A DNA stretch of 64,000 nucleotides from Alphaproteobacteria bacterium (GTDB lineage Bacteria > Pseudomonadota > Alphaproteobacteria > JAPYRI01). Position numbers and translations under genes: made by a program. Location of the stretch: NCBI GenBank assembly GCA_029941135.1, contig JAPYRI010000004.1:3116-67115 (forward strand), in the 5' to 3' direction. The notes under the pieces are model-generated. The model was given only the letters and a program-made list of their open reading frames with translations, had not been told where the DNA came from and did no database searches. The stretch's first letter is position 1, and each line of letters opens with the position of its first letter. Shown piece by piece: positions 2,716-30,517 of this stretch.

Positions 2716-3135
2716 CTAGTCTACCGTGCGCAAGGCGTTGATTGCTGCTTCGAACGGCAGCAACACACAGGCGTGGCGGCTTTTGTGATCGGCAACCGGC
2801 AAGAAAATGCTGAGCGCTTCCCATTTCCCCTGAGGCACCGGCGCATCCTGCTTCAACATGGCCGATATCTGCGATTGCACATTCTCGAGAGTTGATGCGT
2901 CGGCACCGATCGCTTTATCACATAAAATCGACGCGCTCGCCTGACAGAGCACACAGGCTTTGGCTTCGTGGGCAATGTCAGAAATCGCCCCGTCACTGAG
3001 TTTGATGTCGATGGTCACCCGGTCGCCACATAACGGGTTATCGAGCATGACGGAGCCGTCAGGATCGTCAAGCCGGCCGGCCCGGTGGGCGGCTGCGGCA
3101 TGGTGCAACACGTCTTTCTGATACAAGTTGGTCAT
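2716..3135 (-). CDS. SufU/IscU-like Fe-S/sulfur-transfer scaffold protein (NifU N-terminal-like, SufE-like partner of SufS)
   Basis: The motifs NPLCGDRVTIDIKL...HEAKACVLCQASASIL match the SufU/IscU-type cysteine pattern. The start codon overlaps the sufS stop (ATGA). Confidence 0.65.
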   Translation of the reverse strand: MTNLYQKDVLHHAAAAHRAGRLDDPDGSVMLDNPLCGDRVTIDIKLSDGAISDIAHEAKACVLCQASASILCDKAIGADASTLENVQSQISAMLKQDAPVPQGKWEALSIFLPVADHKSRHACVLLPFEAAINALRTVD

Positions 3136-4412
3136 GGTTTTAGCAGCTTAATGACGTCGTCGAGGCCATTCAAGAAAGCGTCTACATCGCCATCATTGTT
3201 ATAAAGGGCAACGCTCGCCCGCGTGGTGCCAGTCAATCCGAAAAAATCCATCAAGGGTTGCGCGCAATGGTGACCCCCGCGCAAGGCAACCCCATGGCCA
3301 TCCAAGAGCTGGCATATATCGTGGGGGTGCAGTCCTTCAATGGCGAACGATACCACCGGCAGGCGGTTGTCCAACTCGCGCGGACCGATCAGCCGAATGA
3401 GCCCGCGGTTATTGTCGATGTCATCCAATCCGTCTATCAAGCGGCCGGTTAAACGTTGCTCGTGCCGGGCTGCGCCCGTCAAGTCCTGCGCGCAGAGCCA
3501 CGCAAGTGCCGCCCCCAACCCCACCGCTTGGGCGATCGGTGGAGTGCCGGCCTCAAACCGGTGTGGCGGTTCGGCATAAATGGTTTCATCCAGTGTCACC
3601 GTGCGGATCATTTCGCCGCCCCCCATAAACGGGGGCAGGGCGTCCAAGACCTCAGAGCGGCCCCACAGAACGCCGACCCCATTGGGGCCAAATGTCTTGT
3701 GACTGGAAAATCCATAAAAATCCACACCCAAGGCTTGTACATCGATGGGTCCGTGAGGCGCGCGCTGGGCGCCATCCAGCAGCACCTTCGCGCCGACCGC
3801 ACGAGCTGCCGCCACAATCGGTGCAACGTTGGTCATGGCGCCGGATACATTGGAGCCATGGGTCACCGCAATCAGTTTGGTGCGGGGGGTGACGATTGCT
3901 TGGAGCGCTGCAAGGTCAACCGCGCCGTCGGCGCTGGCGGATAGTACTCTTAGGGTAATGCCAATCCGGTCGCGCACCATTTGCCAGGGGACAATGTTGC
4001 TGTGGTGCTCTACTTGGCTAATGACGACCTCGTCGCCCGGTTGCAGAGTGCCGCCAAATGCATGTGCCACCAAATTTATGGCGCCGGTCGTGCCCGAGGT
4101 GAAGACGATTTCGGTGGGGCTGGTGGCATTCAGGAATTGGGCCACTTGCCCGCGCGCCGCCTCAAACGCTTCGGTGGCTTCTTCGGCCAAGTGGTGGATG
4201 CTGCGCATGACGTTGGCCCGGTGCCGGGAGTCATGAACGGCAACAGCATCCAGCACCGCGCGCGGGGTCTGCGCGGTCGCAGCATTGTCTAAATAATGGA
4301 GCGGCTGCCCGTCTATCTCGCGCTCGAATATGGGGAACTGAGCACGTACAGCCTCAACGTTGTAAGCGGACGTGGCGTCTTTGCCTGAGTTGGCTACCTT
4401 CGAATTACTCAT
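3132..4412 (-). CDS. sufS: Cysteine desulfurase, SufS/CsdA-type (class V aminotransferase)
   Basis: The protein has LDNAATAQTP at the N-terminus, the PLP-lysine motif FYGFSSHKTFGPNGVGVLWGR, and a C-terminal segment ...RASVALYNNDGDVDAFL... The ORF is open from 4640, but the likely start is MSNSKVANSG... at 4412, which gives about 426 aa. Confidence 0.85.
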   Translation of the reverse strand: MSNSKVANSGKDATSAYNVEAVRAQFPIFEREIDGQPLHYLDNAATAQTPRAVLDAVAVHDSRHRANVMRSIHHLAEEATEAFEAARGQVAQFLNATSPTEIVFTSGTTGAINLVAHAFGGTLQPGDEVVISQVEHHSNIVPWQMVRDRIGITLRVLSASADGAVDLAALQAIVTPRTKLIAVTHGSNVSGAMTNVAPIVAAARAVGAKVLLDGAQRAPHGPIDVQALGVDFYGFSSHKTFGPNGVGVLWGRSEVLDALPPFMGGGEMIRTVTLDETIYAEPPHRFEAGTPPIAQAVGLGAALAWLCAQDLTGAARHEQRLTGRLIDGLDDIDNNRGLIRLIGPRELDNRLPVVSFAIEGLHPHDICQLLDGHGVALRGGHHCAQPLMDFFGLTGTTRASVALYNNDGDVDAFLNGLDDVIKLLKP

Positions 4413-6030
4413 CGCTTGCCCGGGTTGCCGCCTGGAGCGCCTCGGGCGTATCCAGATCGAGAAAGATGGCATCGTCCTCCATTGGCACCTCACATACGAG
4501 ATCGGCGTTTTCGCCAATAATGTGGCGCGCGCCGACATCACCGGCAACTTGCGCCATTTCAGCAAAGAATTGTGCCGGCCAAAGCACCGGATTGCCACGT
4601 TTGCCGTCCTTGGTGGGCACACAAATGGCTCGGCATTCATCAGGGTCGAAGGCGGCGATCAATTGGCTCATGTGATCGGCGGTGACTCGCGGCATGTCGC
4701 CCAAGCATACCAGCACCCCATCCACATCGCCGGGCAAGGCATTGAGGCCTACGCGCAATGACGTGCTGAGTCCCGCGGCGTAATCGGGATTGTGATAGAT
4801 CATGACGCTTTTGCCATCGAGTGCCGTCGCTACCCGATCCGCTTCATGGCCGGTGACCACCACCACCGGAACTGCGCCGGACGCGATCGCCGCGTCAACC
4901 ACTCGCGCCACCATAGGTGCGCCACCAACACTCGCGAGCAATTTATTGGTTTTGCCCATGCGCCGCGACTGCCCGGCGGCAAGCACCAGTGCGGCAATCT
5001 TTTTAGGCGCGATCGCTTGGGGCTCCAAGGCCTCACGCGGTTGGGGACGACCGGCAATTTCCTTCAAAAGTCCACCCGCACCCATGAGCATGATGTCACG
5101 TCGGGTGACCGGTATTCCCGCGGCGATCCGCTCCAATACCCAGTCAAAGCCGTTCAGTTTGGGGGAGCGGGCACAGCCTGGGACACCAATCACCGGTACC
5201 GCACCATAGTGGGCGAGCAGCAACAAGTTGCCTGGGTCAACCGGCATGCCGAAATGATCGATGGTGCCTCCCGCGCGCTCTATCCCCATGGGCACCACGT
5301 CACGCCGGTCAACTGTAGCCGATGCGCCCAGCACCAAAATGGGCGTGCATCCGGCCTCTACCAAATCGCGAACACTATCGGCAACAGCATCCGGCGTGTG
5401 GGTGCACCGCCGCTGCTCGGCGACCGTGCCTTTGACCCCAGCGATACGCGTCGCCAGGACGCTCTCAGCTTTTTTGAGCACTTTATCGCGGGCGCCGGGC
5501 AGCACTGTCAAAACAACTCCCATGCGGCGGGGCACAAACGGTGCGACCCGTAGCAACGGGCCATCATCGCTTGCGATATGCTCCGCCTCACCAACGGCGG
5601 CCTCCGGCGCCGCCAGAGGAATGATTTTGACCGTGCCGACCATCTGCCCTTCGGTAACGCGGGAATAAGGCTGAAGCGCGGCCACTGTGACGGATTCATG
5701 GAGCAGGTTGAGGCGGTCGATGCGGGCCGGATCGGCGATCAAGATGCCGTCGATTTCAGCGTAAATATTGGCGCGTCCGGTAAACGGCTCGGCAGCGCGC
5801 ACGCCCAACCCCGCGGCAGAGGCAGCAACTTGTTCAGCGGCAACGTCCTCGGGCACGTCGCCCACCTCGAGCTTAGCTGCCAATATCGTTGCATGATTAT
5901 GGGCGTGGAGCTTGACCAAATCCTGTTTGGATAAGATGCGCCCTTTTTTAAACGCCAAGCCCCCGAGCCGCATGCTGTGGGCAAGGATCGCGCCTTCGGC
6001 CTCGGCAAGCGGTAAATGATCGAAAATCAT
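4405..6030 (-). CDS. Fusion protein: MoeA/MoCF-biosynthesis (molybdopterin-binding) domains plus C-terminal MobA/MocA-like molybdenum cofactor nucleotidyltransferase
   Basis: The C-terminal half (KIAALVLAAGQSRRMGKTNKLL...VVVTGHEADRV...VLVCLGDMPRV) matches the MobA/MocA NTP-transferase fold. The N-terminal half (GILIADP...VLTVLPGARD...ILVLGASATVDRRDVVP...PVDPGNLLLLAHYGAVPVIGVPGC) is MoeA/CinA-like. There is a 4-nt overlap with the upstream xdhC. Confidence 0.7.
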   Translation of the reverse strand: MIFDHLPLAEAEGAILAHSMRLGGLAFKKGRILSKQDLVKLHAHNHATILAAKLEVGDVPEDVAAEQVAASAAGLGVRAAEPFTGRANIYAEIDGILIADPARIDRLNLLHESVTVAALQPYSRVTEGQMVGTVKIIPLAAPEAAVGEAEHIASDDGPLLRVAPFVPRRMGVVLTVLPGARDKVLKKAESVLATRIAGVKGTVAEQRRCTHTPDAVADSVRDLVEAGCTPILVLGASATVDRRDVVPMGIERAGGTIDHFGMPVDPGNLLLLAHYGAVPVIGVPGCARSPKLNGFDWVLERIAAGIPVTRRDIMLMGAGGLLKEIAGRPQPREALEPQAIAPKKIAALVLAAGQSRRMGKTNKLLASVGGAPMVARVVDAAIASGAVPVVVVTGHEADRVATALDGKSVMIYHNPDYAAGLSTSLRVGLNALPGDVDGVLVCLGDMPRVTADHMSQLIAAFDPDECRAICVPTKDGKRGNPVLWPAQFFAEMAQVAGDVGARHIIGENADLVCEVPMEDDAIFLDLDTPEALQAATRASDE

Positions 6031-6725
6031 GACAGGCCCGGTCGGCGCAGCCGTTCGGTAACTTGGGCCAATATCGACACCGCGATTTCGGACGGGGACC
6101 GGGCGCCAATGTCCAAACCGATGGGGCCATGGATTTGAGCGATAAAATCGTCAGTAAGCCCACGCTCCTTGAGCCGTTCGACGCGCTTCGCGTGGCTGCG
6201 TTTACTGCCCAAGGCGCCGATGTAGAATGCCTCTGAATGAAGTGCGACGCTGAGCGCCGAGTCGTCCAGCTTGGGGTCATGAGTCAACGATACCACCGCC
6301 GTGCGCCTGTCCAAGCCGAGCTCTTCCAAGGCCTCGTCGGGCCATTCGATGCGCAACTCCATACCAGGAAACCGTTCAGGTGTGGCAAAAGCGCGGCGTG
6401 GGTCCACAACAATGACCTGATACCCCGCCACCTCGGCCATCACGGACAGGGGCTGCGAAATATGGACCGCCCCCACAATGATCATACGCAGGGGGGGATT
6501 GAAGACGTTCAAGAATACCTCGCCGTCAGGGGTTTCGACCGTCCGGCCTTTATCCACGTGCGCTGCTTCGCACGCCGCTTTAATTAGAATTTTATTGACC
6601 GTTTTAGTATTATTATCAAATGGATAAATCAGTATTTGCTCATTCGACTTTAAGTTTGTCGCGAGCACGACAGAGCGCTTTTGGGCACGGTCATCAAGGA
6701 GGCGGTAGAGGGTTTCGGACCGCAT
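6027..6725 (-). CDS. XdhC/CoxI family Moco-insertion chaperone, Rossmann-like C-terminal domain ORF
   Basis: The segment ...NPPLRMIIVGAVHISQPLSVMAEVAGYQVIVVDPRRAF... is typical of XdhC_C. Confidence 0.75.
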   Translation of the reverse strand: MRSETLYRLLDDRAQKRSVVLATNLKSNEQILIYPFDNNTKTVNKILIKAACEAAHVDKGRTVETPDGEVFLNVFNPPLRMIIVGAVHISQPLSVMAEVAGYQVIVVDPRRAFATPERFPGMELRIEWPDEALEELGLDRRTAVVSLTHDPKLDDSALSVALHSEAFYIGALGSKRSHAKRVERLKERGLTDDFIAQIHGPIGLDIGARSPSEIAVSILAQVTERLRRPGLS

Positions 6726-6733
6726 GATTGGGA

Positions 6734-7123
6734 TTACCCGATCCGTTCGACCAGGATGCGCACTTCGCCGCCGCAGGTGAGACCCGCCTCCCAGGCGTTA
6801 TCGTCCGACACGCCGAAATCGAGCAGCTTGTGTTCACCGGATTGAATGACGTCTAGCGCTTCCGCAACCACCGCCCCTTCGATGCAACCGCCGCTGACCG
6901 AGCCGGTAAATTGACCACCCTCATCAATGGCGAGCAGACTGCCGACCGGACGCGGGGACGAGCCCCAAGTGGCGACGACGGTCGCGAGCGCAACGCCCTT
7001 GTTATCAGCTTTCCACTGGGCGGCTTGTTCAAGGACTGCATCGTGGCTCGGGTAGGGGTCGCCGGTTGGGTTCATGGGTACCTCGTAAGCGATTTCAGCC
7101 GCCACCTTTGAGGGCCGCTTCAA
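6734..7123 (-). CDS. XdhC/CoxI family protein, N-terminal domain ORF (the two ORFs form a split XdhC)
   Basis: The segment ...VALATVVATWGSSPRPVGSLLAIDEGGQFTGSVSGGCIEGAVVAEALDVIQSGE... is the XdhC_CoxI N-domain. The annotated start overlaps the upstream FAD-subunit gene by 29 nt, so the true start may be the internal M at 7075. Confidence 0.7.
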   Translation of the reverse strand: MKRPSKVAAEIAYEVPMNPTGDPYPSHDAVLEQAAQWKADNKGVALATVVATWGSSPRPVGSLLAIDEGGQFTGSVSGGCIEGAVVAEALDVIQSGEHKLLDFGVSDDNAWEAGLTCGGEVRILVERIG

Positions 7124-7901
7124 CTGCCCGGGTGGCCATTATTTTGACCAGATTTGCCCGATACTCAGGCCCAGCATAAAGATCGGTATTCATGCCGTCG
7201 GGGGAAATCGTCATGTCGGCGAGTGCGGACGGCGAAAAATCACGGGTCAGTGCCTCTTCCATTTGGGCCTCGCGGTAAACACACGGGCCTGCGCCAGTGA
7301 CCGCCGCTCGCACATCGGTGCCGAATTTCGCAATAAAAACACCAACTACCGCATAGCGCGACGCCGGGTGGTCGAATTTCATATAGGCCGCCAGCTCCGG
7401 CACCGGAAAATCAACCGAGGTCACAATTTCGTCCCCGGCCAAAGCTGTCTCGAAGAGGGCGGTGAAGAAATCATCGGCCGCAATCTGCCGTTTGGAGGTG
7501 TGGACAGTGGCTCCCAACCCGATCAGAGCGGCCGGGTAATCCGCTGCCGGGTCGTTGTTGGCGATGGAGCCGCCCAAGGTTCCTCGATTGCGCACGTGCA
7601 TGTCGCCGATATTCCCGGCCAAGCCAGCAAGGGCGGGGAGGGCGGCCTGCACCTCGGGTGATGAGGCGACCGACGCGTGTGTCAACATAGCGCCCACGGA
7701 TACCTGGGCTTTTTTAACGTCAATCATTACGAGGCCCGGCACTTCGGCCAGATCAATCACATCTGAAGGCGCCGCCAATCTTTGTTTGAGGGTCGGAATC
7801 ATGGTTTGACCGCCCGCCATAAGTAAGGGATCCTCCGCTGTGCGCAAGAAATTGGCAGCGTCTTCCAAGGATTGGGGCCGGTGATAGGCGAAATCATGCA
7901 T
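7095..7901 (-). CDS. Molybdenum hydroxylase FAD-binding (medium, CoxM/XdhB-like) subunit, copy 1
   Basis: The N-terminus MHDFAYHRPQSLEDAANFL...AGGQTMIPTLKQRL and the internal ...GTLGGSIANNDPAADYPAALIGLGA... match the CO-dehydrogenase flavoprotein family. Confidence 0.85.
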   Translation of the reverse strand: MHDFAYHRPQSLEDAANFLRTAEDPLLMAGGQTMIPTLKQRLAAPSDVIDLAEVPGLVMIDVKKAQVSVGAMLTHASVASSPEVQAALPALAGLAGNIGDMHVRNRGTLGGSIANNDPAADYPAALIGLGATVHTSKRQIAADDFFTALFETALAGDEIVTSVDFPVPELAAYMKFDHPASRYAVVGVFIAKFGTDVRAAVTGAGPCVYREAQMEEALTRDFSPSALADMTISPDGMNTDLYAGPEYRANLVKIMATRAVEAALKGGG

Positions 7902-7910
7902 GGCGCGGCC

Positions 7911-8387
7911 CTACCCGCCTGCTTCGTTCATGGCATGCGCGCCGGCGACAATCGACTTCACAATATTGTGGTAGCCGGTACAGCGGCAAAAATTGCCTGA
8001 AAGCTCACGGCGCACCGTGGCGTCGTCCACATCCGGGAAGCGGCGGGCGATATCAAGCCCGGCCATAACCATGCCCGACGTGCAAAACCCGCACTGGAGA
8101 CCATGGTTTTCGCGGAAAGCCGCCTGCATGGGATGAAGGGTGTCGCCGTCCGCGACCCCCTCAATCGTCAGCACGTCGGCATCTGCCGCTTGCACGGCGA
8201 GTATGGTGCAGGATTTGACCGGTATGCCGTCCATATGAACCACACACGCCCCGCATTGGCTGGTGTCACAGCCCACGTGGGTGCCCGTCAGGCGGAGTTG
8301 TTCGCGCAGCAACTGCACGAGTAATGTCCGGTTTTCAACCTCGACCGAAACCTCGGCGCCATTAACAGTCATTGAAACAGTAGGCAT
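7911..8387 (-). CDS. Molybdenum hydroxylase (2Fe-2S)-binding small subunit, copy 1
   Basis: The plant-type and second [2Fe-2S] motifs are present: [16 protein letters not shown]...[10 protein letters not shown]...CRCTGY. Confidence 0.9.
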
Positions 8388-8395
8388 GATACTTG

Positions 8396-8647
8396 TTAGC
8401 CTCCCCGAATGGCGGGTAGGAAATACACCTCGCTGGTAGGACCAATGTCCTCAAGCCAGGCATCTTGATGCAAATTTCCGTCGATTGCCACGGCCATACT
8501 GCCGTCTTGCAGCACCTCAGCGATGCCGGGAAATTTCTGATCGAGTTTGCGAATGAGATCGCGAACGTCGGTCACATCCATGTCGAGCGTCGTCTCACCA
8601 CCGGTAAACTGACGGCCCAGATCATTGGTGAGAACAATCTGGGCCAT
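8396..8647 (-). CDS. MoaD/ThiS-family ubiquitin-like protein (C-terminal GG)
   Basis: The 83-aa protein ends ...[11 protein letters not shown], the size and C-terminal Gly-Gly of sulfur-carrier and related MoaD-like proteins. It sits between the large subunit gene and the second S/M pair. Confidence 0.6.
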
Positions 8648-8651
8648 TAGT

Positions 8652-10916
8652 TTAGCTGCCGTTTTTGATCGCCGCCAAAATTTTAGGCGGTGACAAAGGA
8701 AGATCGGTCATACGGACGCCGATGGCGTTGGACACGGCATTCGCGACCGCGCCCAAAGGCGGAATGATAGGCACTTCGCCGACCCCACGTACTCCAAACG
8801 GATGAGCTTCGTTGGGCACTTCAATAATCACCGTATCGATCATCGGCAGGTCGGACGCAACCGGCATGCGGTAATCGAGGAAACCGGTGTTCTGCAGACA
8901 TCCATCGTCGCCGTAGACGTATTCTTCGTTCAAGGCCCAGCCGACCCCTTGGGCGACACCGCCTTGGATTTGCCCTTCCACGTAACTGGGGTGGATGGCG
9001 CGGCCGACGTCTTGCACGGCGGTGTAGCGCAGCACGGTGACGTGACCGGTTTCCGGGTCAACTTCCACATCGACGATATGGGTGCCGAAACCGGGTGCTG
9101 CGCCTTGGGCGTTGATAGCGGCGCGACCGGTGATCGGCCCGCCCATCTTGGCCGATGTGCGTGCGATGTCGGCGAGCGACATGGGCTCGAAGTCGCCAGC
9201 ATTGGGCCCGGCGGGCCGGGCGTGGCCTTCGCTCCATTCGACCGCATCTGGGCTGATATCCCACACTTTGGCGGCGCGTGTGCGCATTTGGTCAACCGCG
9301 TCGGTGGCCGCATTACACACTGCCATGCCACTGGCAAAGGTGGTGCGGCTACCGCCGGTCAAGTCGTTGTAGCCAATGGAACTGGTATCAGCGACGATCG
9401 GACGCACTTTGTCGTAGTCGATGCCGAGTACCTCGGCGGCCATGGCTGCCATGCTGGCGCGTGAACCGCCGATATCCGGATTGCCCGACAACACAACCGC
9501 TGTTCCATCGGTGTTGATGTTCACAGACGCGACAGATTCACCCCCCACGTTGAACCAAAACCCGCTCGCCACACCTCGACCCTGGTTGGGGCCGAGCGGT
9601 GCTGAGTAGTGGGGGTGGTTTTTTGCGGCCTCTAAGCATTGTTCGTTGCCGATGGGGCCAAACTTGGGGCCATAAGGCGCGGTCGTGCCTTCCTTGGCGG
9701 CGTTCAATTCGCGCAGGGCAATGGGATCCATGCCAAGTTTCTGCGCCATTTCGTCAATGACGCTCTCAACCGCGAACTCGGACATTGGCGCCCCGGGAGC
9801 CCGGTAGGCCGCAGCTTGAGGGCGATTAACCACCACATCAAAGCCAACAGTCTTTACGTTCTCGAGGTTGTAAGGCGCAAATGCTGTCATGGCGCCCGGC
9901 CCAACAGGTGAGCCAGGATAGCAGCCCGCTTGATAGCGCAATTCGGCTTCACCGGCGGTCAATTTACCGTCCTTAGTAGCGCCTAATTTAACATCGATAG
10001 ACGTACCAGACGTGGGGCCAGTAGCCCGCATAACCTCTTCACGGGTCATGGTCATTTTGACCGGTTTGCCAGCCCTGCCCGAAAGCGCCATGGCGACAGG
10101 CTCCAAGTAGATGACGGTTTTGCCACCAAATCCGCCGCCGATCTCAGCCGGAATAACCCGGATTTGGGCTTCATCAATCTGCATCAGACGGGCGCAATAG
10201 GACCTCACCATGAACTGGCCTTGGCTGCTGCACCAAATTGTGACCTGGCCATCTTCGGCGACACTAACTACGGCACCGTGGGGCTCGAGATAGCCCTGGT
10301 GAGCGGGTTTGGTCTTAAAAGTGCGTTCGATGATCACGTCAGCCGCGGCAAAACCCGCTTCCAGGTCGCCGAAGCCGAATTCGCAGCGGGAGGCGACGTT
10401 GGACGCCTTCGTCGGCGCCGGATCCACTCCAACAGTGATCATTTTTTTGTGCAGAAGCGGTGCTTTTGGTTTCATCGCTTCGTCCACGTCAATGACATGG
10501 GGCAGCACTTGATACTCAACTTTTATGAGCGACAGCGCTTTATCGGCGATGGCCGATGTGGTTGCCGCAACTGCGGCCACCGGATGGCCGTCATACAGGA
10601 CTTTCTTGCGCGCCATCAACTTGTCGGACATTTCGCTAAAATTGGCCGCCAGAATGCCGATCGAAATGGTCTTGTTGGGCAGATTTGGGAAGTCCTTGCC
10701 GATAACCACTGATTTCACGCCGGCGAGCTTTTCTGCCTTGCTGGTATCGATTGATTTAATTTTTGCATGCGCATGCGGGCTTCGGAGGATTTTACCGATC
10801 AGCATTCCCGGCATGCTGCTATCGGCCGAAAACAATGCCCGCCCGGTGACTTTGTCGGTACCATCGGGACGAACCGTCCGCTTACCGACCCATTTATAGT
10901 TGCCATCCACACCCAT
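8652..10916 (-). CDS. Xanthine dehydrogenase/CO dehydrogenase family molybdopterin-binding large subunit
   Basis: The 754-aa protein carries the Moco-domain motifs ...AEIGGGFGGKTV... and ...QAAAYRAPGAPM..., and has the aldehyde-oxidase / xanthine-dehydrogenase a/b-hammerhead plus Moco-binding architecture. Confidence 0.9.
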   Translation of the reverse strand: MGVDGNYKWVGKRTVRPDGTDKVTGRALFSADSSMPGMLIGKILRSPHAHAKIKSIDTSKAEKLAGVKSVVIGKDFPNLPNKTISIGILAANFSEMSDKLMARKKVLYDGHPVAAVAATTSAIADKALSLIKVEYQVLPHVIDVDEAMKPKAPLLHKKMITVGVDPAPTKASNVASRCEFGFGDLEAGFAAADVIIERTFKTKPAHQGYLEPHGAVVSVAEDGQVTIWCSSQGQFMVRSYCARLMQIDEAQIRVIPAEIGGGFGGKTVIYLEPVAMALSGRAGKPVKMTMTREEVMRATGPTSGTSIDVKLGATKDGKLTAGEAELRYQAGCYPGSPVGPGAMTAFAPYNLENVKTVGFDVVVNRPQAAAYRAPGAPMSEFAVESVIDEMAQKLGMDPIALRELNAAKEGTTAPYGPKFGPIGNEQCLEAAKNHPHYSAPLGPNQGRGVASGFWFNVGGESVASVNINTDGTAVVLSGNPDIGGSRASMAAMAAEVLGIDYDKVRPIVADTSSIGYNDLTGGSRTTFASGMAVCNAATDAVDQMRTRAAKVWDISPDAVEWSEGHARPAGPNAGDFEPMSLADIARTSAKMGGPITGRAAINAQGAAPGFGTHIVDVEVDPETGHVTVLRYTAVQDVGRAIHPSYVEGQIQGGVAQGVGWALNEEYVYGDDGCLQNTGFLDYRMPVASDLPMIDTVIIEVPNEAHPFGVRGVGEVPIIPPLGAVANAVSNAIGVRMTDLPLSPPKILAAIKNGS

Positions 10917-10918
10917 GA

Positions 10919-11395
10919 TTATTCTCCTCTCATTTCAGCAGCCACGTCCATGACGGACTTTACAATTTTGTCGTAACCCGTGCACCGGCACAGGTTGCCC
11001 GCAAGCCAATATCGAACTTCGGTTTCGGTCGGATTGTCGTTTCTATCCAGTAGAGACTTTGCGGCTACCAAAAAACCCGGTGTGCAAAATCCGCATTGCA
11101 ATGCTGCTTCTTCTAAAAATTTTTGCTGCAGTGGGTGCAGGGTATCGCCTTCGGCCATGTTTTCGATGGTTTCGATTTTGCGGCCCTCAGCTTCAGCGCC
11201 CAACACGAGGCAGGCACAGACTAGGCGACCGTCAATTGTGACACTGCAAGCGCCGCAGTCCCCTGAAGAACACCCTTCCTTACTGCCGGTCAGGTCCAAT
11301 TGATCGCGCAGTATATCGAGCAGGGTTTCCTGGGGTTCGCACAGAAACTCTACCGGTTCACCATTGACTGTAGATGTTACGTGGTGTTTCGACAT
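10919..11395 (-). CDS. Molybdenum hydroxylase (2Fe-2S)-binding small subunit, copy 2
   Basis: The motifs GCSSGDCGACSVTIDG...CGFCTPGFLV...CRCTGY are present. Confidence 0.9.
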   Translation of the reverse strand: MSKHHVTSTVNGEPVEFLCEPQETLLDILRDQLDLTGSKEGCSSGDCGACSVTIDGRLVCACLVLGAEAEGRKIETIENMAEGDTLHPLQQKFLEEAALQCGFCTPGFLVAAKSLLDRNDNPTETEVRYWLAGNLCRCTGYDKIVKSVMDVAAEMRGE

Positions 11396-11398
11396 TCT

Positions 11399-12265
11399 TT
11401 AACTCCTTGTACGTTCGAAGGCAATCAAAGCGGCCCGGCAGGCGAGAACACCCGCAACTTGGGTCCGGTATTCAATCGTGCCCCGCATATCATCAATGGG
11501 GTTGCAGGCAGCACTGGCTGCTGCTGCTAGTGCGTTCAGAGCGGCATCGTCGATCTTTGTGCCAATCAGTGCTTTCGCGCCATCAGCGACCAAAAGTACG
11601 ATCGGAGCGACCGCGCCTATGGCTACGCGCGCAGCGGTGCATGTGCCGCTTTTGTCGACGGTCAGACTTACGCCTGCGCCGACCATGGCAATGTCCATCT
11701 CGGTGCGTGGGATCATGCGCAGGTAAGCGTCCCCGGAACGGGGTGCAGGTTTAGGAAGGGTGAAATAAACGACAATCTCGCCTTTTTTGAGGACGGTCTT
11801 GCCCGGGCCTTTGCTGATTTTTTCAACCGGTACTTTGCGCCGGCCATTGGGTCCGGCGATGGTCGCGACGGCACTGGCTGCAATCAGGGCAGGGACGCTA
11901 TCAGCGGCGGGCGATGCGTTACACAAATTGCCGCCCAATGTCGCGCGCCCCTGAATTTGAGTGGAGCCGATGAGGTCCAAGGCTTCACAAACGCCCGGCC
12001 AGGCCTTTTTAAGCCGCTTATGTTCATTCACCTCCGCGCCGCAGACCGCTGCACCAATGCGAAAATCGTTCTTGTTGACGCTGATCGAGCACATCTCGTC
12101 GATGGACTTCACGTCAACAATTAAGCCGGGTTTTAGGCGTCCGGCCCGCAATTGCACCAGCAGATCAGTCCCGCCTGCCAGCACTCGTGCGCTGTTCCCA
12201 CCGTTTGCCATGAGCCCAACCGCTTCTTTTATCGAAGCGGGAGCTGCGTATTCTATTTGCGCCAT
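11399..12265 (-). CDS. Molybdenum hydroxylase FAD-binding (medium) subunit, copy 2
   Basis: The motifs ...VLAGGTDLLVQLR... and ...ATLGGNLCNASPAADSVPALIA... are present. Confidence 0.85.
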   Translation of the reverse strand: MAQIEYAAPASIKEAVGLMANGGNSARVLAGGTDLLVQLRAGRLKPGLIVDVKSIDEMCSISVNKNDFRIGAAVCGAEVNEHKRLKKAWPGVCEALDLIGSTQIQGRATLGGNLCNASPAADSVPALIAASAVATIAGPNGRRKVPVEKISKGPGKTVLKKGEIVVYFTLPKPAPRSGDAYLRMIPRTEMDIAMVGAGVSLTVDKSGTCTAARVAIGAVAPIVLLVADGAKALIGTKIDDAALNALAAAASAACNPIDDMRGTIEYRTQVAGVLACRAALIAFERTRS

Positions 12266-12404
12266 GTCTCTCCCCTATTCACCAAGTCGACTTAGACGAG
12301 TTTTCCATTAATCCGTCCATAAAAATAAGTGTGTCTGGAAGGCGTGTCAGCGAACATGGTTTCCAGTCAGAACGACCTATACCATGCTCCCCGCACGTCG
12401 AGAA

Positions 12405-13058
12405 TCAGTTGCCACCATTAAAATACCACTGACCGAGCATCCACAACAGGATCAAGGCACCAATCCAGACCATCGGATTAATCCCGCCATCCTCCTCGTA
12501 CTCCTCCACATTGATATCTTCTTCCTCGATTTCATCGCTCAATAAATCGGTGAGCGCGGAAAAAAACTGGTCTGCCAGTTTTGCCGCTGTACCTTCAATG
12601 AGGCGCGATCCGATTTGGGCCAATTTTCCACCAACTACGGCGTCGACGTCATAGGTCAGTCTGGTGTTGTCCCCATCGGTGGTCAAAACCACCTTGGCAC
12701 CGCCCTTGGCGAAACCCGCCGCTCCGCCCTGGCCTTCACCTGAAATGGTATAGCCGTTGGGCGGATCAAGGTCGGAAAGAGTAACTTCGCCTTTAAATTT
12801 GGCTTTGACCGGGCCGACCTTAATGGTCACCGCCGCCGTCATCTCGGTATTTGACAGCTTCTCAATTTCCTCACACCCAGGAATGCATACTTTCAACACT
12901 TCCGGGTCATTGAGGGCGTCCCAAACCTGTTCCCGTGTTGCCGGAATCGAGTACTCGCCCTTGATTTTCAACGAAATCCCTTTCGTTCTAATGGGAATGC
13001 CGCCCGAGCTTTCCCCCTCCCGTAGAGTTGATTTAGCGGCTTTACGGCCATCCGGCAA
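12405..13058 (-). CDS. CoxG-like SRPBCC protein (carbon monoxide dehydrogenase subunit G family) with acidic linker and C-terminal membrane anchor
   Basis: The core ...KIKGEYSIPATREQVWDALNDPEVLKVCIPGCEEIE...VKAKFKGEVTLSDLDPPNGYTISGEGQGGAAGFAKG... matches CoxG. The C-terminus EEEDINVEEYEEDGGINPMVWIGALILLWMLGQWYF is a hydrophobic tail. Confidence 0.8.
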   Translation of the reverse strand: MPDGRKAAKSTLREGESSGGIPIRTKGISLKIKGEYSIPATREQVWDALNDPEVLKVCIPGCEEIEKLSNTEMTAAVTIKVGPVKAKFKGEVTLSDLDPPNGYTISGEGQGGAAGFAKGGAKVVLTTDGDNTRLTYDVDAVVGGKLAQIGSRLIEGTAAKLADQFFSALTDLLSDEIEEEDINVEEYEEDGGINPMVWIGALILLWMLGQWYFNGGN

Positions 13059-13272
13059 TGCAGAAATTAACTTTCACACGGCTTCAAATCGCAGTTCGGC
13101 CACTGCTGGATGTTCGAGCGCACAATAACGTGACAAAACCTTTAAATTAAAGCGGTTTATCTCGTCGCCGTAATTTGGCATGCTTGTTAACTCGAAATAC
13201 CAAGAACAGCCGGTGCCCGGTCGCTGATGACTTAGGGGTAAAAGTACGGCGACCCATGCGAAAGGGGAATTT

Positions 13273-13752
13273 ATGCAAAGATCACTTCAAATCGATCCGG
13301 AAAAATGCACAGCCTGCATGCAGTGCGAATTGGCTTGTTCCTACCAAGCCACAGAATCGTTTAATCCATCGCAATCGCGGATCAAAGTATTCATGTTCCA
13401 CGAAACTGCGCGCTTCGTGCCCTATACTTGCACCCAGTGCGCGGAAGCCTGGTGCATGAAGGCGTGCCCGGTCGATGCCATCCAAGTAAACGCCGAAACT
13501 GGCGCCAAGGAAGTTATCGACAGCTTGTGCGTGGGATGCAAGGTGTGCACCATCGCCTGCCCGTTTGGCACGATCAATTACAGTCAATCGACCGGTAAAG
13601 TGGTCAAATGCGATCTGTGCGGTGGCGATCCCGAATGCGTCAAGGCTTGCCCAACCGATGCCATTACTTATGTGGACGCGGATTGGACCGGTCTCGACAA
13701 AATGCGGGCATGGGCAGCGAAAACCGATAGTCAGTCAGGCGCCCAGGCGTAA
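13273..13752 (+). CDS. 4Fe-4S ferredoxin-type electron-transfer subunit (AorA-like) of aldehyde:ferredoxin oxidoreductase
   Basis: The protein has multiple CxxCxxCxxxCP-type cluster motifs (CTACMQCELAC..., CTQCAEAWCMKACP, CVGCKVCTIACP, CDLCGG..CVKACP). Confidence 0.8.
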   Translation: MQRSLQIDPEKCTACMQCELACSYQATESFNPSQSRIKVFMFHETARFVPYTCTQCAEAWCMKACPVDAIQVNAETGAKEVIDSLCVGCKVCTIACPFGTINYSQSTGKVVKCDLCGGDPECVKACPTDAITYVDADWTGLDKMRAWAAKTDSQSGAQA

Positions 13753-13846
13753 GCCGCCAGCGGCACCCGTTTTTGGCCTCGTGGCCTCGGAAAAACATCG
13801 AGTTCGGCACCGACCGAACTTCACGGAATAAGGAGGAACAGCCATT

Positions 13847-15691
13847 ATGGCGTGGCATAAAAAAATTCTAAGGGTCAATCTCAGCAAAGGCACTTGTGAA
13901 AGTGAGCCGCTGAATTTGAAGTGGGCCGGGAAATATATCGGTCAGCGCGGCCTAGGCACCAAATATTTGTCCGAGGAAATAGACCCCAAGGTCGATCCTT
14001 TGTCGCCGGAAAATAAACTGATCATCGCGACCGGTCCTTTGACGGGGACGGCGGCGGCGACTGGCGGACGCTGGTCGGTGATCTGCAAAGGCCCGTTGAC
14101 GGGCGCGATCGCCGCCTCGAATTCGGGTGGCTACTTCGGCGCTGAACTGAAGTTTGCCGGCTGGGACATGATCATTATCGAGGGCCGGTCGGATAAACCG
14201 GTCTATTTGTTCGTGCAAGACGATAAAGCGCAATTACTGCCGGCAGACGACCTATGGGGCCAAGACGTATGGGAAACTGAAGAGGCTCTGCTCGCCCGTC
14301 ACCAGGATCCACAGATAAAAGTGGCTGCCATCGGCAAAGCTGGGGAAATCGGCTGTATGTATGCATGCGTCGTTAACGATAAGCATCGGGCGGCGGGGCG
14401 CTCGGGCGTCGGTGCCGTGATGGGGTCCAAAAACCTCAAGGCAATTGCCGTGCGTGGCACCCAAGGTGTCCCGGTGGCCAACCCGGCTGAGTTTATGGCG
14501 GCGACGACCGAAGCCAAAAAGGTATTGGCCGAAGACGCGGTCACCGGCCAAGGACTACCGGCCATGGGTACCCAAGTCATCATGAACGTGATGAATGAAC
14601 TCGGCGGGTTGCCCGCCCATAACCACCGCGACGTTCAGTTCGATGGCGCGAGTAAAATCGGTGCCGAAGCTATGATATTGCCCCGGCCCGATGGCTCGAC
14701 CAACCTGGTCAAGAACCAGGCTTGTTTTGGCTGCACCATTGCCTGTGGACGGATCTCTAAAATATCGCCCGAACACTTCACGGTTAAAAACAGTGGCAAG
14801 GAGTGGGGCGCGTCCGGCGGCCTCGAATACGAAAGCGCGTGGGCTTTCGGCGCCGACACAGGTGTTGATGACCTGGATGCGCTTACTTACGTCAACTTCC
14901 TATGCAACATGCATGGCATGGATACGATCTCGTTTGGGGCGACGGTTGCCGCCGCCATGGAGTTGTTTGAAATAGGCGCCATTACGACCAAAGAAACCGG
15001 CGGCATTGAATTAAAGTTCGGCTCGGCCGAAGCTTTGGTTGAAATGGCACTCCTGGTCGGGCGTGGCGAAGGCTTTGGCCTCGACATTGGTCTTGGGTCC
15101 AAACGCCTGTGCGAAAAATACTCGAAACCCGAAGTCGCCATGGTGGTGAAAGGTCAGGAATTCCCGGCCTATGACCCCCGCGCCATGCAAGGAATGGCGC
15201 TTGGCTATGCTACCAGCAATCGGGGTGCCTGCCATTTGCGTGGTTACACCGTGTCGGCTGAAGTATTTGGCGTGCCGGTCAAAATGGAGCCGTCGGCTAC
15301 CGAAGGCAAAGCTGAGATTACCATGGCCTTCCAAAACGCGACGTCGGTCGTTGACTCTGCCGGTATTTGCTCGTTCGCGACATTCGCCTGGACTTTGGAA
15401 GATGTGCAAAAGCAATTGAATGCCGATCTTGAAGGTGATTGGAGCCTTGAACGCCTACTCGAAACTGGCGAGCGCATTTGGAATCTGGAACGCCAATTCA
15501 ATTTGTCAGCGGGTCTGACCAAAGCTGATGACACATTGCCCGCGCGCTTATTGAAGGACGCGGCCAAAACCGGACCGGCAAAGGGCAAAGTCGCCGAACT
15601 CGGCAAGATGCTACCGGAATATTACGAGCTGCGAGGCTGGACGCCGGATGGCGTACCGACCAATGCAACGCTGGACCGGCTCGCGCTTTAG
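13847..15691 (+). CDS. Aldehyde:ferredoxin oxidoreductase, tungsten-pterin (AOR) family catalytic subunit
   Basis: The 614-aa protein has the AOR-family N-terminus MAWHKKILRVNLSKGTCESEPL...YIGQRGLGTKYL and conserved AOR_N/AOR_C blocks (...GPLTG...GGRWSV..., ...CFGCTIACGR...). Confidence 0.9.
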   Translation: MAWHKKILRVNLSKGTCESEPLNLKWAGKYIGQRGLGTKYLSEEIDPKVDPLSPENKLIIATGPLTGTAAATGGRWSVICKGPLTGAIAASNSGGYFGAELKFAGWDMIIIEGRSDKPVYLFVQDDKAQLLPADDLWGQDVWETEEALLARHQDPQIKVAAIGKAGEIGCMYACVVNDKHRAAGRSGVGAVMGSKNLKAIAVRGTQGVPVANPAEFMAATTEAKKVLAEDAVTGQGLPAMGTQVIMNVMNELGGLPAHNHRDVQFDGASKIGAEAMILPRPDGSTNLVKNQACFGCTIACGRISKISPEHFTVKNSGKEWGASGGLEYESAWAFGADTGVDDLDALTYVNFLCNMHGMDTISFGATVAAAMELFEIGAITTKETGGIELKFGSAEALVEMALLVGRGEGFGLDIGLGSKRLCEKYSKPEVAMVVKGQEFPAYDPRAMQGMALGYATSNRGACHLRGYTVSAEVFGVPVKMEPSATEGKAEITMAFQNATSVVDSAGICSFATFAWTLEDVQKQLNADLEGDWSLERLLETGERIWNLERQFNLSAGLTKADDTLPARLLKDAAKTGPAKGKVAELGKMLPEYYELRGWTPDGVPTNATLDRLAL

Positions 15692-15780
15692 GGGTTTTTA
15701 AGACGTGCGGGGGGTGCCCGTTCCAATACCTCTGGAGACGATAGCCACCCGTTTGCTGTCTGTCTGATGAGGATATTGAG

Positions 15781-17016: not shown

Positions 17017-17042
17017 TCGGCATTGACCCGGAAGAGTCAGCG

Positions 17043-17294
17043 ATGAAAGTCACGGTTAAATTATTTGCTCTTCTGGAAAAATATCTCCCACGGGATACGA
17101 TTGATCAGACCGTGGAGGTTGACGTGACTGACGGCGCTTCACCCCATGTTGTGCTGGCGAAGTTTGGAGTGCCGCCACAGGAATGCCACTTGCTCTTGGT
17201 CAATGGTTGTTTCGTCCTCCCCAGCGAACGGGATAACTTTGTCATGAGAGAAAATGACGCTTTGGCCGCGTGGCCGCCCATCGCGGGTGGATAG
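17043..17294 (+). CDS. MoaD/ThiS-family ubiquitin-like protein (C-terminal GG), AOR-cluster associated
   Basis: The 83-aa protein MKVTVKLFALLEKYLPRDT...ENDALAAWPPIAGG ends in Gly-Gly. It has an ATG at 17043 with an upstream GAAGAG ribosome-binding site. Confidence 0.65.
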   Translation: MKVTVKLFALLEKYLPRDTIDQTVEVDVTDGASPHVVLAKFGVPPQECHLLLVNGCFVLPSERDNFVMRENDALAAWPPIAGG

Positions 17295-17335
17295 AAAAGT
17301 TTAAGCGCTGTCGGGGGCGATACGCGACGGGGAGA

Positions 17336-17635: not shown

Positions 17636-17645
17636 GGCAGGGAAC

Positions 17646-18350: not shown

Positions 18351-18370
18351 CCTCTAACAGGAGAAAACGG

Positions 18371-23210: not shown

Positions 23211-23214
23211 TGGG

Positions 23215-30440: not shown

Positions 30441-30517
30441 CGGGGCGTAGCGCAGCCTGGTAGCGCGGCTGCTTTGGGAGCAGCAGGTCCTCGGTTCGAA
30501 TCCGGGCGCCCCGACCA
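30441..30517 (+). tRNA. tRNA-Pro (anticodon TGG)
   Basis: Cloverleaf read by eye: acceptor cggggcg/cgccccg, D-stem gcgc, anticodon stem gctgc/gcagc with loop tttggga (TGG), T-loop ttcgaat, discriminator A and an encoded CCA. Confidence 0.85.

Follow-up and report, generated by a model that had tools for sequence, protein, structure and literature searches.

Molybdenum hydroxylases are usually seen as fixed, co-encoded trios of a large molybdopterin-binding subunit (L), an FAD subunit (M), and a [2Fe-2S] subunit (S). The xanthine dehydrogenase (XDH) of Rhodobacter capsulatus is matured by XdhC and the cysteine desulfurase NifS4, and HcrB, a subunit of the 4-hydroxybenzoyl-CoA reductase (4-HBCR) HcrABC, has an extra [4Fe-4S] loop. 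Among CO dehydrogenases (CODH), the form-I CoxL carries the active-site loop (A/S)YRCS(F/L)R (PMC13240472, PMC7645674), and form II is coxSLM whose CoxL has AYRGAGR (King & Weber 2007, in the summaries of PMC7645674 and PMC13240472). CoxG, tethered to the membrane, shuttles quinone and docks where CoxM and CoxL meet, close to the FAD (PMC12202499). In Aromatoleum aromaticum, the operon of the tungsten enzyme AorABC also encodes two MoaD-like maturation factors, AorD and AorE (PMC6365974).

The locus described here lies in a 64-kb stretch of alphaproteobacterial DNA, which as a whole is called the window. It consists of 12 close-set genes that span ~10 kb of the minus strand from 13058 to 2716. 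All 12 ORFs of the preliminary description were present, and its gene labels were backed by Pfam and NCBIfam profile searches. The features, in order of transcription, are as follows.

12405..13058, minus strand: coxG, SRPBCC-type quinone-shuttle protein (PF06240, E 4e-38), likely start TTG 12971
11399..12265, minus strand: M2, FAD subunit, 288 aa (PF00941 + PF03450), L's native partner
10919..11395, minus strand: S2, subunit with two [2Fe-2S] clusters, 158 aa (PF01799 + PF00111), L's native partner
8652..10916, minus strand: L, molybdopterin-binding large subunit, 754 aa (PF01315 + PF02738 + PF20256)
8396..8647, minus strand: MoaD/CysO-like beta-grasp sulfur-carrier-type protein, 83 aa (PF02597, ThiS/MoaD family)
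7911..8387, minus strand: S1, second [2Fe-2S] subunit, form-II CoxS type, 158 aa (PF01799 + PF00111)
7095..7901, minus strand: M1, second FAD subunit, form-II CoxM type, 268 aa (PF00941)
6734..7123, minus strand: XdhC/CoxI N-terminal half, Moco chaperone (PF02625, E 1e-24), likely start ATG 7075
6027..6725, minus strand: XdhC C-terminal Rossmann half (PF13478, E 4e-43)
4405..6030, minus strand: MoeA-like/MocA fusion, 541 aa, MoeA-like in residues 1-340 and MocA-type cytidylyltransferase in 345-537
3132..4412, minus strand: SufS-type cysteine desulfurase, 426 aa (PF00266, Aminotran_5, E 7e-132)
2716..3135, minus strand: SufU/IscU-like sulfur acceptor, 139 aa (PF01592, NifU_N, E 1e-11)
13059..13272, no strand assigned: divergent intergenic region between coxG and an aorA-like gene, with probable promoters and a ~30-nt block kept in a relative

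Two of the starts first assigned, TTG 13058 for coxG and TTG 7123 for the N-terminal half of XdhC, were merely the longest possible, and the internal starts listed above are likelier. SufS most likely starts at ATG 4412, which gives its 426 aa. The genes are packed as tightly as had been claimed: neighbors lie 2-9 nt apart or overlap by 4-8 nt, and only the 139-nt gap between coxG and M2 is larger. S1 starts 8 nt past the MoaD-like stop codon, preceded by GGAGG, and is separated from M1 by 9 nt with no L in between. Promoter-like and terminator-like sites within the cluster were not above their frequency in shuffled sequence. Given this and the 8-9 nt spacers, S1 and M1 are predicted to be co-transcribed with L. 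A tblastn search of the whole 64-kb window with L returned no other large subunit. The central observation of the preliminary description, one L beside two distinct S/M pairs in a single tight transcription unit, therefore holds.

The active-site loop of L is AYRAPGA (context AAAYRAPGAP) and the conserved glutamate lies in a GVGE motif; AYRAPG[ASG] was found in 79 of the 81 members of the L family. All NCBIfam matches of L were below cut-off, the best being the 4-HBCR alpha model. The loop and scores under every curated CODH, XDH, and 4-HBCR cut-off confirm the earlier view that L falls outside the form-I CO dehydrogenases. For the form-I Mo-Cu enzyme, the loop does not fit and model TIGR02416 gave 282 bits against a cut-off of 991. 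Form-I gene order is coxMSL followed by the accessory genes coxDEF; the window has M2-S2-L in the order M-S-L, with no coxD/E/F after L and an XdhC-type gene farther downstream. A form-II CODH-like large subunit was rejected since L has AYRAPGA instead of AYRGAGR, and its identity to form-II large subunits is only ~30%. The molybdenum subunit of xanthine dehydrogenase (XdhABC/PucCDE) was likewise rejected, as all curated equivalog models were under cut-off (NF043082, 458 vs 780; PRK09970, 430 vs 916; TIGR03196, 365 vs 784; TIGR02965, 240 vs 850). A T comes right after GGGFGGK in L, at what is presumably the position of the substrate-binding Glu of bovine XDH.

The nearest PDB chains of L are 1rm6_A and 7dqx_A. 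HcrABC (PDB 1rm6) is the nearest solved relative, with a full-length match to L (E 7e-98) and an equal L/M/S subunit plan. However, HcrA has ASEG at the position of the GVGE glutamate of L, and M2 is 288 aa, compared to 324 aa for HcrB, and matches it only over the first ~117 residues. All three subunits were under the 4-HBCR equivalog cut-offs (alpha with L, 482 vs 994.6 bits; beta with M2, 129 vs 404.6; gamma with S2, 167 vs 258), and this identity was rejected as well. The second-best solved relative of L is the 6-hydroxypseudooxynicotine (ketone) dehydrogenase Kdh/Pno (PDB 7dqx), which shares the AYRAPG loop, the G-x-G-E glutamate motif, and an M-S-L type heterotrimer, but overall similarity is low (267 bits) and the context in the window shows no nicotine pathway. 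A MoaD-like partner gene of Kdh was not reported in the Kdh literature examined. L belongs to a very widespread, uncharacterised, AYRAPGA-looped clade, and the substrate of the enzyme it forms with S2 and M2 is not CO.

A survey of metagenomic loci of the L family showed that M2, S2, L, and the MoaD-like gene form a self-contained, widespread four-gene module. It is predicted to encode a heterotrimeric, cytosine-dinucleotide-type Mo/FeS/FAD enzyme. S, or S and M, stood immediately upstream of L in 59 of 70 assessable loci, with an M2-type gene directly before S2-L in most of those 59, and a MoaD-like gene followed L in 53 of the 70. The S gene preceding L in this survey shared 68-89% identity with S2, and the best NCBIfam match of M2 was an XdhB-type model (190 bits, below cut-off). 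None of the 49 L-family loci with enough downstream sequence had an S1-M1-type pair, and none of 80 had coxG. In the 11 remaining assessable AYRAPGA-type loci (11/70), L had no adjacent S/M, a sign that the S/M partners in this family need not be encoded beside L.

The MoaD-like protein passed the PF02597 cut-off (27.6 vs 22.5 bits) and ends in RGG. Gly-Gly was exactly terminal in 50 of 55 genes that follow L, and among 150 library representatives it was so in 106. The profile matches the CysO/MoaD-type PDB chains 4n6e_B, 3dwg_C, and 1v8c_A. By profile and C-terminal Gly-Gly, it is predicted to be a member of the MoaD/ThiS sulfur-carrier superfamily. MoaD proper, the small subunit of MPT synthase, was rejected (TIGR01682, 15 vs a cut-off of 66); matches to the moaD, moaD_arch, and SAMP1 models were all below cut-off, and Pfam annotation found no MoaE-family product among the operon genes. 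Like AorD and AorE, which are absent from the purified enzyme, it is a small MoaD-like protein encoded in a pterin-dependent oxidoreductase operon, except that it follows L in a molybdenum-hydroxylase module. An AorABC-like operon with two small MoaD-like ORFs adjoins the cluster, and no similarity between the L-linked protein and the aor-linked copy in the window was detectable by tblastn (E 1e-3).

S1 and M1 had been described as a divergent duplicate of the first pair, with 40-45% identity. That value is right for S (45%) and wrong for M (25%), and the second pair instead comes from another enzyme family, the form-II cox type, as do coxG and all of the maturation genes. S1 shares 57-75% identity with the S of canonical S-L(AYRGAGR)-M clusters, M1 53-65% with their M, and coxG 60-71% with the coxG genes at the head of these clusters; overall, the three are 53-79% identical to components of form-II clusters. 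As in the CoxG of Mo-CODH, which has an SRPBCC domain (PF06240), a flexible linker, and a C-terminal membrane helix, CoxG of the window has an acidic linker and a hydrophobic C-terminal helix, MVWIGALILLWMLG. Both S proteins retain all eight [2Fe-2S] cysteines, and both M proteins retain the AGG..../TLGG FAD motifs.

The canonical form-II order is coxG-S-L(AYRGAGR)-M-coxD-coxE-xdhC-mocA-sufS-nifU, and most M1 homologues lie in coxG-S-L-M clusters with an AYRGAGR L and the same maturation genes after it. Relatives of S1 and M1 showed the S-L-M order in 52 loci with all three genes (58 if six contigs with S cut off or undetected are included), and AYRGAGR is carried by the L genes that other genomes have between an S1-type and an M1-type gene. 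In the window, S1 and M1 adjoin each other without this L, coxD and coxE are missing, and a foreign M-S-L-MoaD module lies between coxG and coxS. A tree of S plus M placed the window clade together with 100% bootstrap and a canonical S-L-M cluster as its sister with 74%, and the S-versus-M divergence ratio of S1/M1 is as in canonical clusters. These comparisons assign S1, M1, coxG, and the maturation genes to the form-II CO-dehydrogenase cluster type. In one 4.78-Mb genome, the AYRAPGA module and the form-II cluster are both complete and 1.7 Mb apart.

The maturation genes also follow the form-II pattern, as split xdhC, MoeA-like/mocA, sufS, and sufU occur in an order seen in many of these clusters. 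XdhC_CoxI (PF02625) and XdhC_C (PF13478) lie on two adjacent, separate ORFs, a split found identically in >20 form-II clusters. The C-terminal part of the fusion protein matches NTP_transf_3 (PF12804, E 1e-39), and its best-scoring family is the MocA equivalog TIGR03310 (155.7 bits vs a cut-off of 186.45, residues 347-533). Its N-terminal 340 aa had no Pfam or PDB sequence match; homologues at 55-60% identity carry PF00994. In its AlphaFold model (pLDDT 86), the top Foldseek matches were gephyrin-E, Cnx1E, and MoeA (prob 1.0, E 5e-7) with a global TM of ~0.3 and identity of ~13%, and these matches support the label MoeA-like at the level of the predicted fold. SufS has an equal position in four form-II clusters (L017, L024, L030, and L165). 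Its gene overlaps that of the SufU-like protein by 4 nt, the latter is conserved after sufS in form-II clusters, and the two combine a class-V aminotransferase fold with a NifU_N/IscU-type acceptor.

As with XDH of R. capsulatus, the operon supplies an XdhC-family chaperone and a cysteine desulfurase, which is consistent with sulfuration of Moco and its insertion into a xanthine oxidase-family enzyme, including a putative role in forming Mo=S. The window differs in that XdhC is split, the MocA/MoeA-like fusion is present, and the desulfurase is a SufS with an operon-encoded SufU-like partner. The maturation set cannot be called complete, as the preliminary description had it, since moaA/C/E and mogA are absent, and coxD (AAA+ MoxR) and coxE (VWA), which lie between M1 and xdhC in sister lineages, are missing.

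Since the M2-S2-L-MoaD module stands alone elsewhere and S1, M1, coxG, and the maturation genes are of form-II type, the operon is a mosaic in which two molybdenum-hydroxylase gene sets of separate origin are combined. The module sits inside a form-II cluster, after its coxG and before its coxS, and this cluster no longer has an L of its own. What surrounds the module is the remnant of that cluster, with its own L probably deleted and coxD/coxE also gone in this sub-lineage. The mosaic order recurred in four more contigs of the clade, in which L is 85-88% identical, and it is confined to this one narrow clade, which probably belongs to the Rhodospirillales. A recent loss of a second L had been proposed. 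The loss is supported by the AYRGAGR L that the closest relatives of S1/M1 flank in S-L-M operons, but the L-less order is common to at least four lineages with saturated synonymous sites (dS 1.2-2.3), and thus the loss was not recent. Also, the premise that one M, one S, and one L are the norm has frequent exceptions, both in the L family (11/70) and in the M1 family, where about 7 of 80 loci have no L beside S-M.

One possible explanation is that S1 and M1 no longer function and are being lost with the rest of a form-II cluster in decay, as coxD/coxE have been deleted nearby and an adjoining SDR gene is a pseudogene. This is very improbable. Both ORFs are intact with every cofactor motif present, and the pair was kept in every clade member seen. 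The dN/dS values were 0.055-0.08 for S1 and 0.10-0.11 for M1 (M2, 0.054; S2, 0.04-0.045); those for S1/M1 come from three pairwise comparisons and are rough because dS is saturated. These data indicate that S1 and M1 are functional genes under purifying selection.

What the pair does can be weighed against other loci in which it occurs. L-less coxG-S-M cassettes were found in at least five other lineages, and the 10 kb around them contained no large subunit, whatever its type. In L049, L050, L062, and L072, the cassette comes after Mrp-like antiporter genes (12-nt spacer in L049) that are orthologous, at 50-69% identity and in the same order, to a Mrp-like cluster at 21263-27525 of the window. 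S1, M1, and CoxG could work without a Mo subunit, for example as an FAD/[2Fe-2S] NAD(P)H:quinone unit, possibly tied to the nearby Mrp-like module. We consider this improbable. The Mrp-like genes of the window are 8 kb off with other operons between, and we know of no such activity for stand-alone CoxS/CoxM-type proteins. The S+M tree made the two clades sisters in only 4% of bootstraps, so the shared Mrp-like neighborhood may be mere chromosome synteny.

We tentatively favor a mosaic in which S1 and M1 were kept as a second, quinone-linked output route for the same L, an account of the whole locus that we regard as plausible, if somewhat short of probable. XdhC, MocA, and the MoeA-like module would make the MCD cofactor and insert it into L. 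SufS and SufU would give sulfur, possibly with the GG-terminated MoaD-like carrier, for Fe-S clusters and/or the Mo=S ligand. Electrons would pass from L to a [2Fe-2S] subunit and on to an FAD subunit, with S2/M2 as the native route of L and S1/M1 retained as a second one. Membrane-tethered CoxG would dock on the form-II-type FAD subunit M1 and connect the enzyme with the respiratory quinone pool. The clusters of the window and of L166/L167 have kept S1/M1 but not coxD/coxE, which speaks for an S1/M1 pair that has become independent of a form-II L. Several findings speak against assembly of L with S1/M1. S1 and M1 are just 45% and 25% identical to the native partners, and L has only ~30% identity to the form-II large subunits. 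The literature searched contained no case of cross-family subunit assembly, and we know of none. S2/M2 are strongly constrained, and hence L has no obvious need of a second pair.

Another possible explanation shares the mosaic origin and has S1/M1, with CoxG, serve an L encoded elsewhere, either a relocated form-II AYRGAGR L or an orphan, while the adjacent L uses S2/M2 only. The L-less cassettes, which recur independently (L041; L049/L050/L062/L072; L010, with coxD/E-xdhC-mocA), show that S1/M1-type pairs can persist with partners elsewhere, and this could apply here too. Orphan large subunits are common in the related L family, and S1/M1 are far nearer to form-II S/M than to S2/M2. However, the window holds no second L, and deletion is a more parsimonious way to a clean 9-nt S-M junction than relocation of a gene out of the middle of an S-L-M operon. 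This arrangement would also have S1/M1 expressed from the operon of another L after the loss of coxD/coxE, the companions of form-II L genes. We view this explanation as possible and on the doubtful side; if it is right, the locus is a case of ordinary operon reshuffling.

A bolder form of the favored second-route account is that CoxS/CoxM plus CoxG is a portable electron-output cassette, free of any one large subunit and pluggable onto other Mo-hydroxylase clades. One catalytic subunit would here have two interchangeable FeS/FAD modules, native and captured form-II (quinone-linked), with the GG-terminated MoaD-like protein alongside as a dedicated sulfur carrier for cofactor maturation, a function not known to have been described for this enzyme family. 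We consider this rather unlikely as a whole. Large subunits without neighboring S/M, S/M(+CoxG) cassettes without L, and a foreign pair long kept beside a complete trio suggest more modularity than fixed trios imply. Sharing or swapping of S/M modules, if possible, would change the reading of "coxL-like" genes, of which marine and soil genomes have many, and the prediction of the electron acceptor of these enzymes (quinone vs other). The large AYRAPGA clade with its dedicated MoaD-like partner gene is a worthwhile biochemical target.

The divergent intergenic region at 13059..13272 matched no Rfam family. It probably holds promoters, and an alignment of the window with L002 contains a conserved block of ~30 nt, CATGCCAAATT.C.GC..C.AGATAAACCGC, despite saturated synonymous sites.

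Twelve open reading frames run in one direction on the minus strand, from position 13058 to 2716 of the window. They were identified with Pfam and NCBIfam and are given below in order of transcription.

Genes of the operon (window coordinates, strand, identity)
12405-13058, minus: coxG (PF06240)
11399-12265, minus: M2, FAD subunit (FAD_binding_5 and CO_deh_flav_C)
10919-11395, minus: S2, [2Fe-2S] subunit (Fer2 and Fer2_2)
8652-10916, minus: L, molybdopterin-binding large subunit, 754 aa (Ald_Xan_dh_C, MoCoBD_1 and MoCoBD_2)
8396-8647, minus: MoaD-like, 83 aa, ThiS/MoaD family, C-terminus RGG
7911-8387, minus: S1, [2Fe-2S] subunit
7095-7901, minus: M1, FAD subunit
6734-7123, minus: XdhC_CoxI, molybdenum cofactor chaperone, N-terminal half
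6027-6725, minus: XdhC_C, molybdenum cofactor chaperone, C-terminal half
4405-6030, minus: MocA fusion, 541 aa, MocA-type nucleotidyltransferase as its C-terminal part
3132-4412, minus: SufS-type Aminotran_5
2716-3135, minus: NifU_N/SufU-like

The preliminary description had claimed one large subunit and two S/M pairs, and this was borne out by the Pfam and NCBIfam assignments, the gene spacing and a tblastn search with L, which found no second large subunit in the 64-kb window. The same search excluded a second L just beyond the operon. Adjoining genes are separated by 2-9 nt or overlap by 4-8 nt, with the 139 nt between coxG and M2 as the sole exception, and conservation in that spacer is limited to the RBS. 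For coxG and the N-terminal xdhC gene, the start codons lying furthest upstream probably give proteins that are too long. Promoter- and terminator-like matches within the operon were at or below shuffled-sequence expectation. Since there was no such excess and the spacers around S1/M1 are 8-9 nt (9 nt between S1 and M1), separate transcription of this pair was ruled out. The eight cluster cysteines are intact in S1 and S2, and the FAD motifs are intact in M1 and M2. The MoeA/MocA fusion of the preliminary description stood in part. A MocA-type nucleotidyltransferase was recognized by profile, but the MoeA-like part had no sequence-profile match and is suggested at the fold level by an AlphaFold model (pLDDT 86), for which Foldseek matched MoeA/gephyrin-E/Cnx1E (probability 1.0, E 5e-7). 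Many homologues of the fusion at 55-60% identity contain PF00994.

Close relatives of L number in the thousands. Our survey covered 80 metagenomic loci whose L is 60-69% identical, and 70 of them were assessable. In 59 of these 70, L has S immediately before it, mostly with M preceding S, and in 53 it is followed by an 81-85-aa MoaD-like gene. Of the 49 loci whose downstream sequence extends 1.7 kb or more, none had an S1-M1-type pair, and coxG was absent from all 80. This survey identifies M2-S2-L-MoaD as a stand-alone four-gene module. At two loci another S-like gene, 35-37% identical, comes after M-S-L (L114, 10708-13371; L119, 8402-8866). A 729-aa ORF follows it in L114, and the extra gene is probably part of an adjacent two-subunit IorAB-type enzyme.

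The active-site loop reads AYRAPG[A/S/G] in 79 of 81 members of the L family, and no mention of AYRAPGA, the loop of L, was found in the literature searched. The nearest solved structures were 4-hydroxybenzoyl-CoA reductase alpha (1rm6, E 7e-98) and then 6-hydroxypseudooxynicotine dehydrogenase (7dqx), which has AYRAPG in common with L. Against the curated NCBIfam cut-offs, L scored 482 of 994 bits for 4-hydroxybenzoyl-CoA reductase, 458 of 780 for XdhA, 387 of 790 for glyceraldehyde dehydrogenase and 282 of 991 for CODH. Identity with any of these enzymes, xanthine dehydrogenase included, or with PaoC was rejected because L lies far below every curated HMM cut-off. The Alicycliphilus hydratase/dehydrogenase MhyADH was also rejected, since its 824-aa large subunit is described as nearest another group and no link was found. 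Judged by the form-I active-site loop, in place of which L has AYRAPGA, CO is predicted not to be the substrate, in agreement with the preliminary description. L retains the glutamate of the G-x-G-E motif, a feature of oxidative hydroxylases.

The MoaD-like protein is distantly related to the MoaD/CysO/SAMP sulfur carriers and can be grouped with them because of PF02597, PDB profile matches to 4n6e_B, 3dwg_C and 1v8c_A, and sub-cut-off matches to moaD, moaD_arch and SAMP1. Its family is small and distinct, with 390 cluster representatives among 1.84 billion. Gly-Gly is the exact C-terminus in 50 of 55 L-adjacent copies and in 106 of 150 representatives, as would be expected if the C-terminus undergoes activation chemistry. 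The protein is most likely a maturation factor, in analogy to AorD/AorE, the MoaD-like proteins of the tungsten AorABC operon (PMC6365974), and may carry sulfur for either the pterin dithiolene or the Mo=S ligand.

S1 and M1 have a different family context. The relatives of M1 (53-65% identity) are named 'CO dehydrogenase medium subunit' in their sources. Among 80 loci from species-representative genomes, a large subunit of ~785 aa was directly before M in 58, and the order was S-L-M in all 52 that show S as well. The large subunit of these clusters carries AYRGAGR, and this loop and the coxSLM order define form-II cox clusters (PMC7645674, PMC13240472). Many of them begin with coxG and later contain coxD, coxE, both halves of xdhC, the MoeA-like/mocA fusion, sufS and nifU (for example L013, L017, L019, L024 and L030); the maturation set of the window consists of the same genes minus coxD/E. 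One 4.78-Mb genome holds both units complete and far apart, with M-S-L-MoaD at 4.35 Mb (L001) and [S]-L-M-coxD...coxE-xdhC-mocA-sufS-nifU at 2.6 Mb (L165). The second S/M pair had been described as about 40-45% identical to the first, which is true for S1/S2 (45%) only. M1 and M2 are 25% identical and, with the separate family context of each pair, this excludes recent tandem duplication. The two pairs derive from two different enzyme systems, and the operon is a mosaic: a form-II-type cluster has a foreign M-S-L-MoaD module inserted between its coxG and coxS genes and lacks the AYRGAGR large subunit between S1 and M1. Literature searches on MoaD-like genes in molybdenum hydroxylase clusters and on orphan coxS/coxM yielded no description of this arrangement. 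What is new about the operon is how it combines two known kinds of system, in a narrow clade; it does not represent a novel type of enzyme system. Its interest lies in the modular pairing of molybdenum hydroxylase subunits that it implies and in the large uncharacterised AYRAPGA/MoaD-like family that it exposes.

The same gene order was found in four further contigs with L 85-88% identical (the P0002 contig, L002/L003 and L166/L167), one close relative being annotated Rhodospirillales. The arrangement is thus conserved in relatives, but only within a narrow clade. Two sister lineages have coxD (AAA+ MoxR) and coxE (VWA) between M1 and the N-terminal xdhC gene (L002, 10824-12973); both are cleanly absent in the window (7095-7123) and in L166/L167. 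In a neighbor-joining tree of concatenated S and M (100 bootstraps), the clade of the window was monophyletic (100%) and its sister was a canonical S-L(AYRGAGR)-M cluster (74%). Therefore, the form-II large subunit was lost within this clade. Pairwise dS is saturated (1.2-2.3), so the loss was not recent. A recent loss had been one of three suggestions in the preliminary description; loss is the best supported of them, but its recency is not. Simple decay of S1/M1 is a minor alternative that the selection data speak against, as dN/dS is 0.055-0.08 for S1 and 0.10-0.11 for M1, compared to 0.04-0.06 for L, S2 and M2. Relaxed selection on M1 was rejected because the relation of S to M identity in the window/L002 pair (0.84/0.72) is inside the range of canonical clusters. 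These values indicate that S1 and M1 are functional genes and not relics.

Exceptions to the canonical trio are frequent and exist in both families. Several unrelated lineages have a coxG-S-M cassette without L (L041; the L049/L050/L062/L072 clade; and L010, where coxD-coxE-xdhC-mocA accompany it), and Pfam annotation of the L010, L041 and L049 flanks showed no large subunit. L020 has S-M-coxD-coxE, yet a divergent L is upstream on the opposite strand. An AYRAPGA-type L, usually with a MoaD-like gene, had no S/M in at least 1.5 kb upstream in 11 of the 70 assessable L-family loci, and the genes flanking L in L088 and L151 were unrelated. From these cassettes and loci together, large subunits paired with S/M encoded elsewhere must be common in these bacteria. 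Large subunits of the AYRAPGA family with no S/M nearby were seen in L088, L089, L126, L136, L149-L151 and L156, the MoaD-like gene often being kept, and the L088 large subunit has prkA/DUF444/spoVR genes on one side and an IS66 transposase on the other.

The main rival explanation for S1/M1, possible at well under even confidence, is that they serve a large subunit encoded elsewhere, as must be the case for L-less cassettes in other genomes. That S1/M1 share little identity with S2/M2 favors this rival. The loss of coxD/coxE with retention of S1/M1 and the clean 9-nt S1-M1 junction are weak points in favor of S1/M1 persisting as a quinone-linked output for the neighboring L, additional to S2/M2, which we tentatively favor at slightly less than even confidence. 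CoxG acts as a quinone shuttle tethered to the membrane, and it docks near the FAD at the CoxM/CoxL interface (PMC12202499). The window's CoxG has the layout of published mycobacterial CoxG, an SRPBCC domain, a linker and a C-terminal membrane helix; its C-terminus (12405-12540) is an acidic linker and hydrophobic helix (MVWIGALILLWMLGQWYF). The quinone-linked output is favored because coxG accompanies the form-II S/M genes and never the AYRAPGA module. In the proposed mechanism, the MoeA-like/MocA fusion and the split XdhC would make and insert a cytosine-dinucleotide cofactor, with sulfur supplied by SufS/SufU. L would oxidise its substrate, electrons would pass through two [2Fe-2S] clusters to FAD, and S1/M1 would give L its quinone-linked output beside the native S2/M2.

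Features neighboring the operon (window coordinates, strand, identity)
1741-2480, plus: SDR pseudogene adjoining the operon
2431-2703, plus: small ORF between sufU and the SDR pseudogene
13273-19998, plus: AorABC-like block, in order a 4Fe-4S protein, AFOR, a Pyr_redox_2 flavoprotein, two small MoaD/ubiquitin-like ORFs, an ORF of ~234-265 aa and two tungstate/molybdate-type ABC-transporter genes
21263-27525, minus: Mrp-like antiporter cluster (562, 487, 500 and 332 aa), 8 kb from the operon

Compared to the intact 246-aa L166 orthologue, the SDR pseudogene shifts frame near 2010, in-frame stops replace two codons (Tyr and Trp), and the alignment ends at residue 228 of 246. The gene is intact in relatives, and an enoyl-CoA hydratase is also part of the conserved neighborhood. 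A 114-aa ORF in the corresponding position of L166 matches the small ORF locally, with ~70% identity over 69 aa. The block divergent from the operon looks like an AorABC-type tungsten aldehyde oxidoreductase operon and flanks the operon in relatives also; its ~234-265-aa ORF had no family match. Between coxG and aorA (~13143-13173), a block of ~30 nt (CATGCCAAATT.C.GC..C.AGATAAACCGC) is conserved in the two sequences compared, the window and L002, despite saturated synonymous sites between them. This block may be a regulatory site common to the divergent operons.

The Mrp-like cluster is orthologous to L049 3972-8907 (50-69% identical, order kept). In L049/L050/L062/L072, Mrp-like genes directly precede the L-less coxG-S-M cassette, with a 12-nt spacer in L049; none of the other M1-type loci among the 80 surveyed has them. 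Either shared synteny or a functional link may lie behind this. A role of S1/M1 without any large subunit, perhaps tied to this module, is a minor possibility. A common L-less ancestor with the L049 clade was rejected, appearing in 4% of bootstraps. Rfam found no riboswitch or known RNA over the operon and its leader, and its only matches in the window were tRNA-Pro(TGG) (30441-30517, plus) and tRNA-Arg(TCT) (31289-31365, plus).
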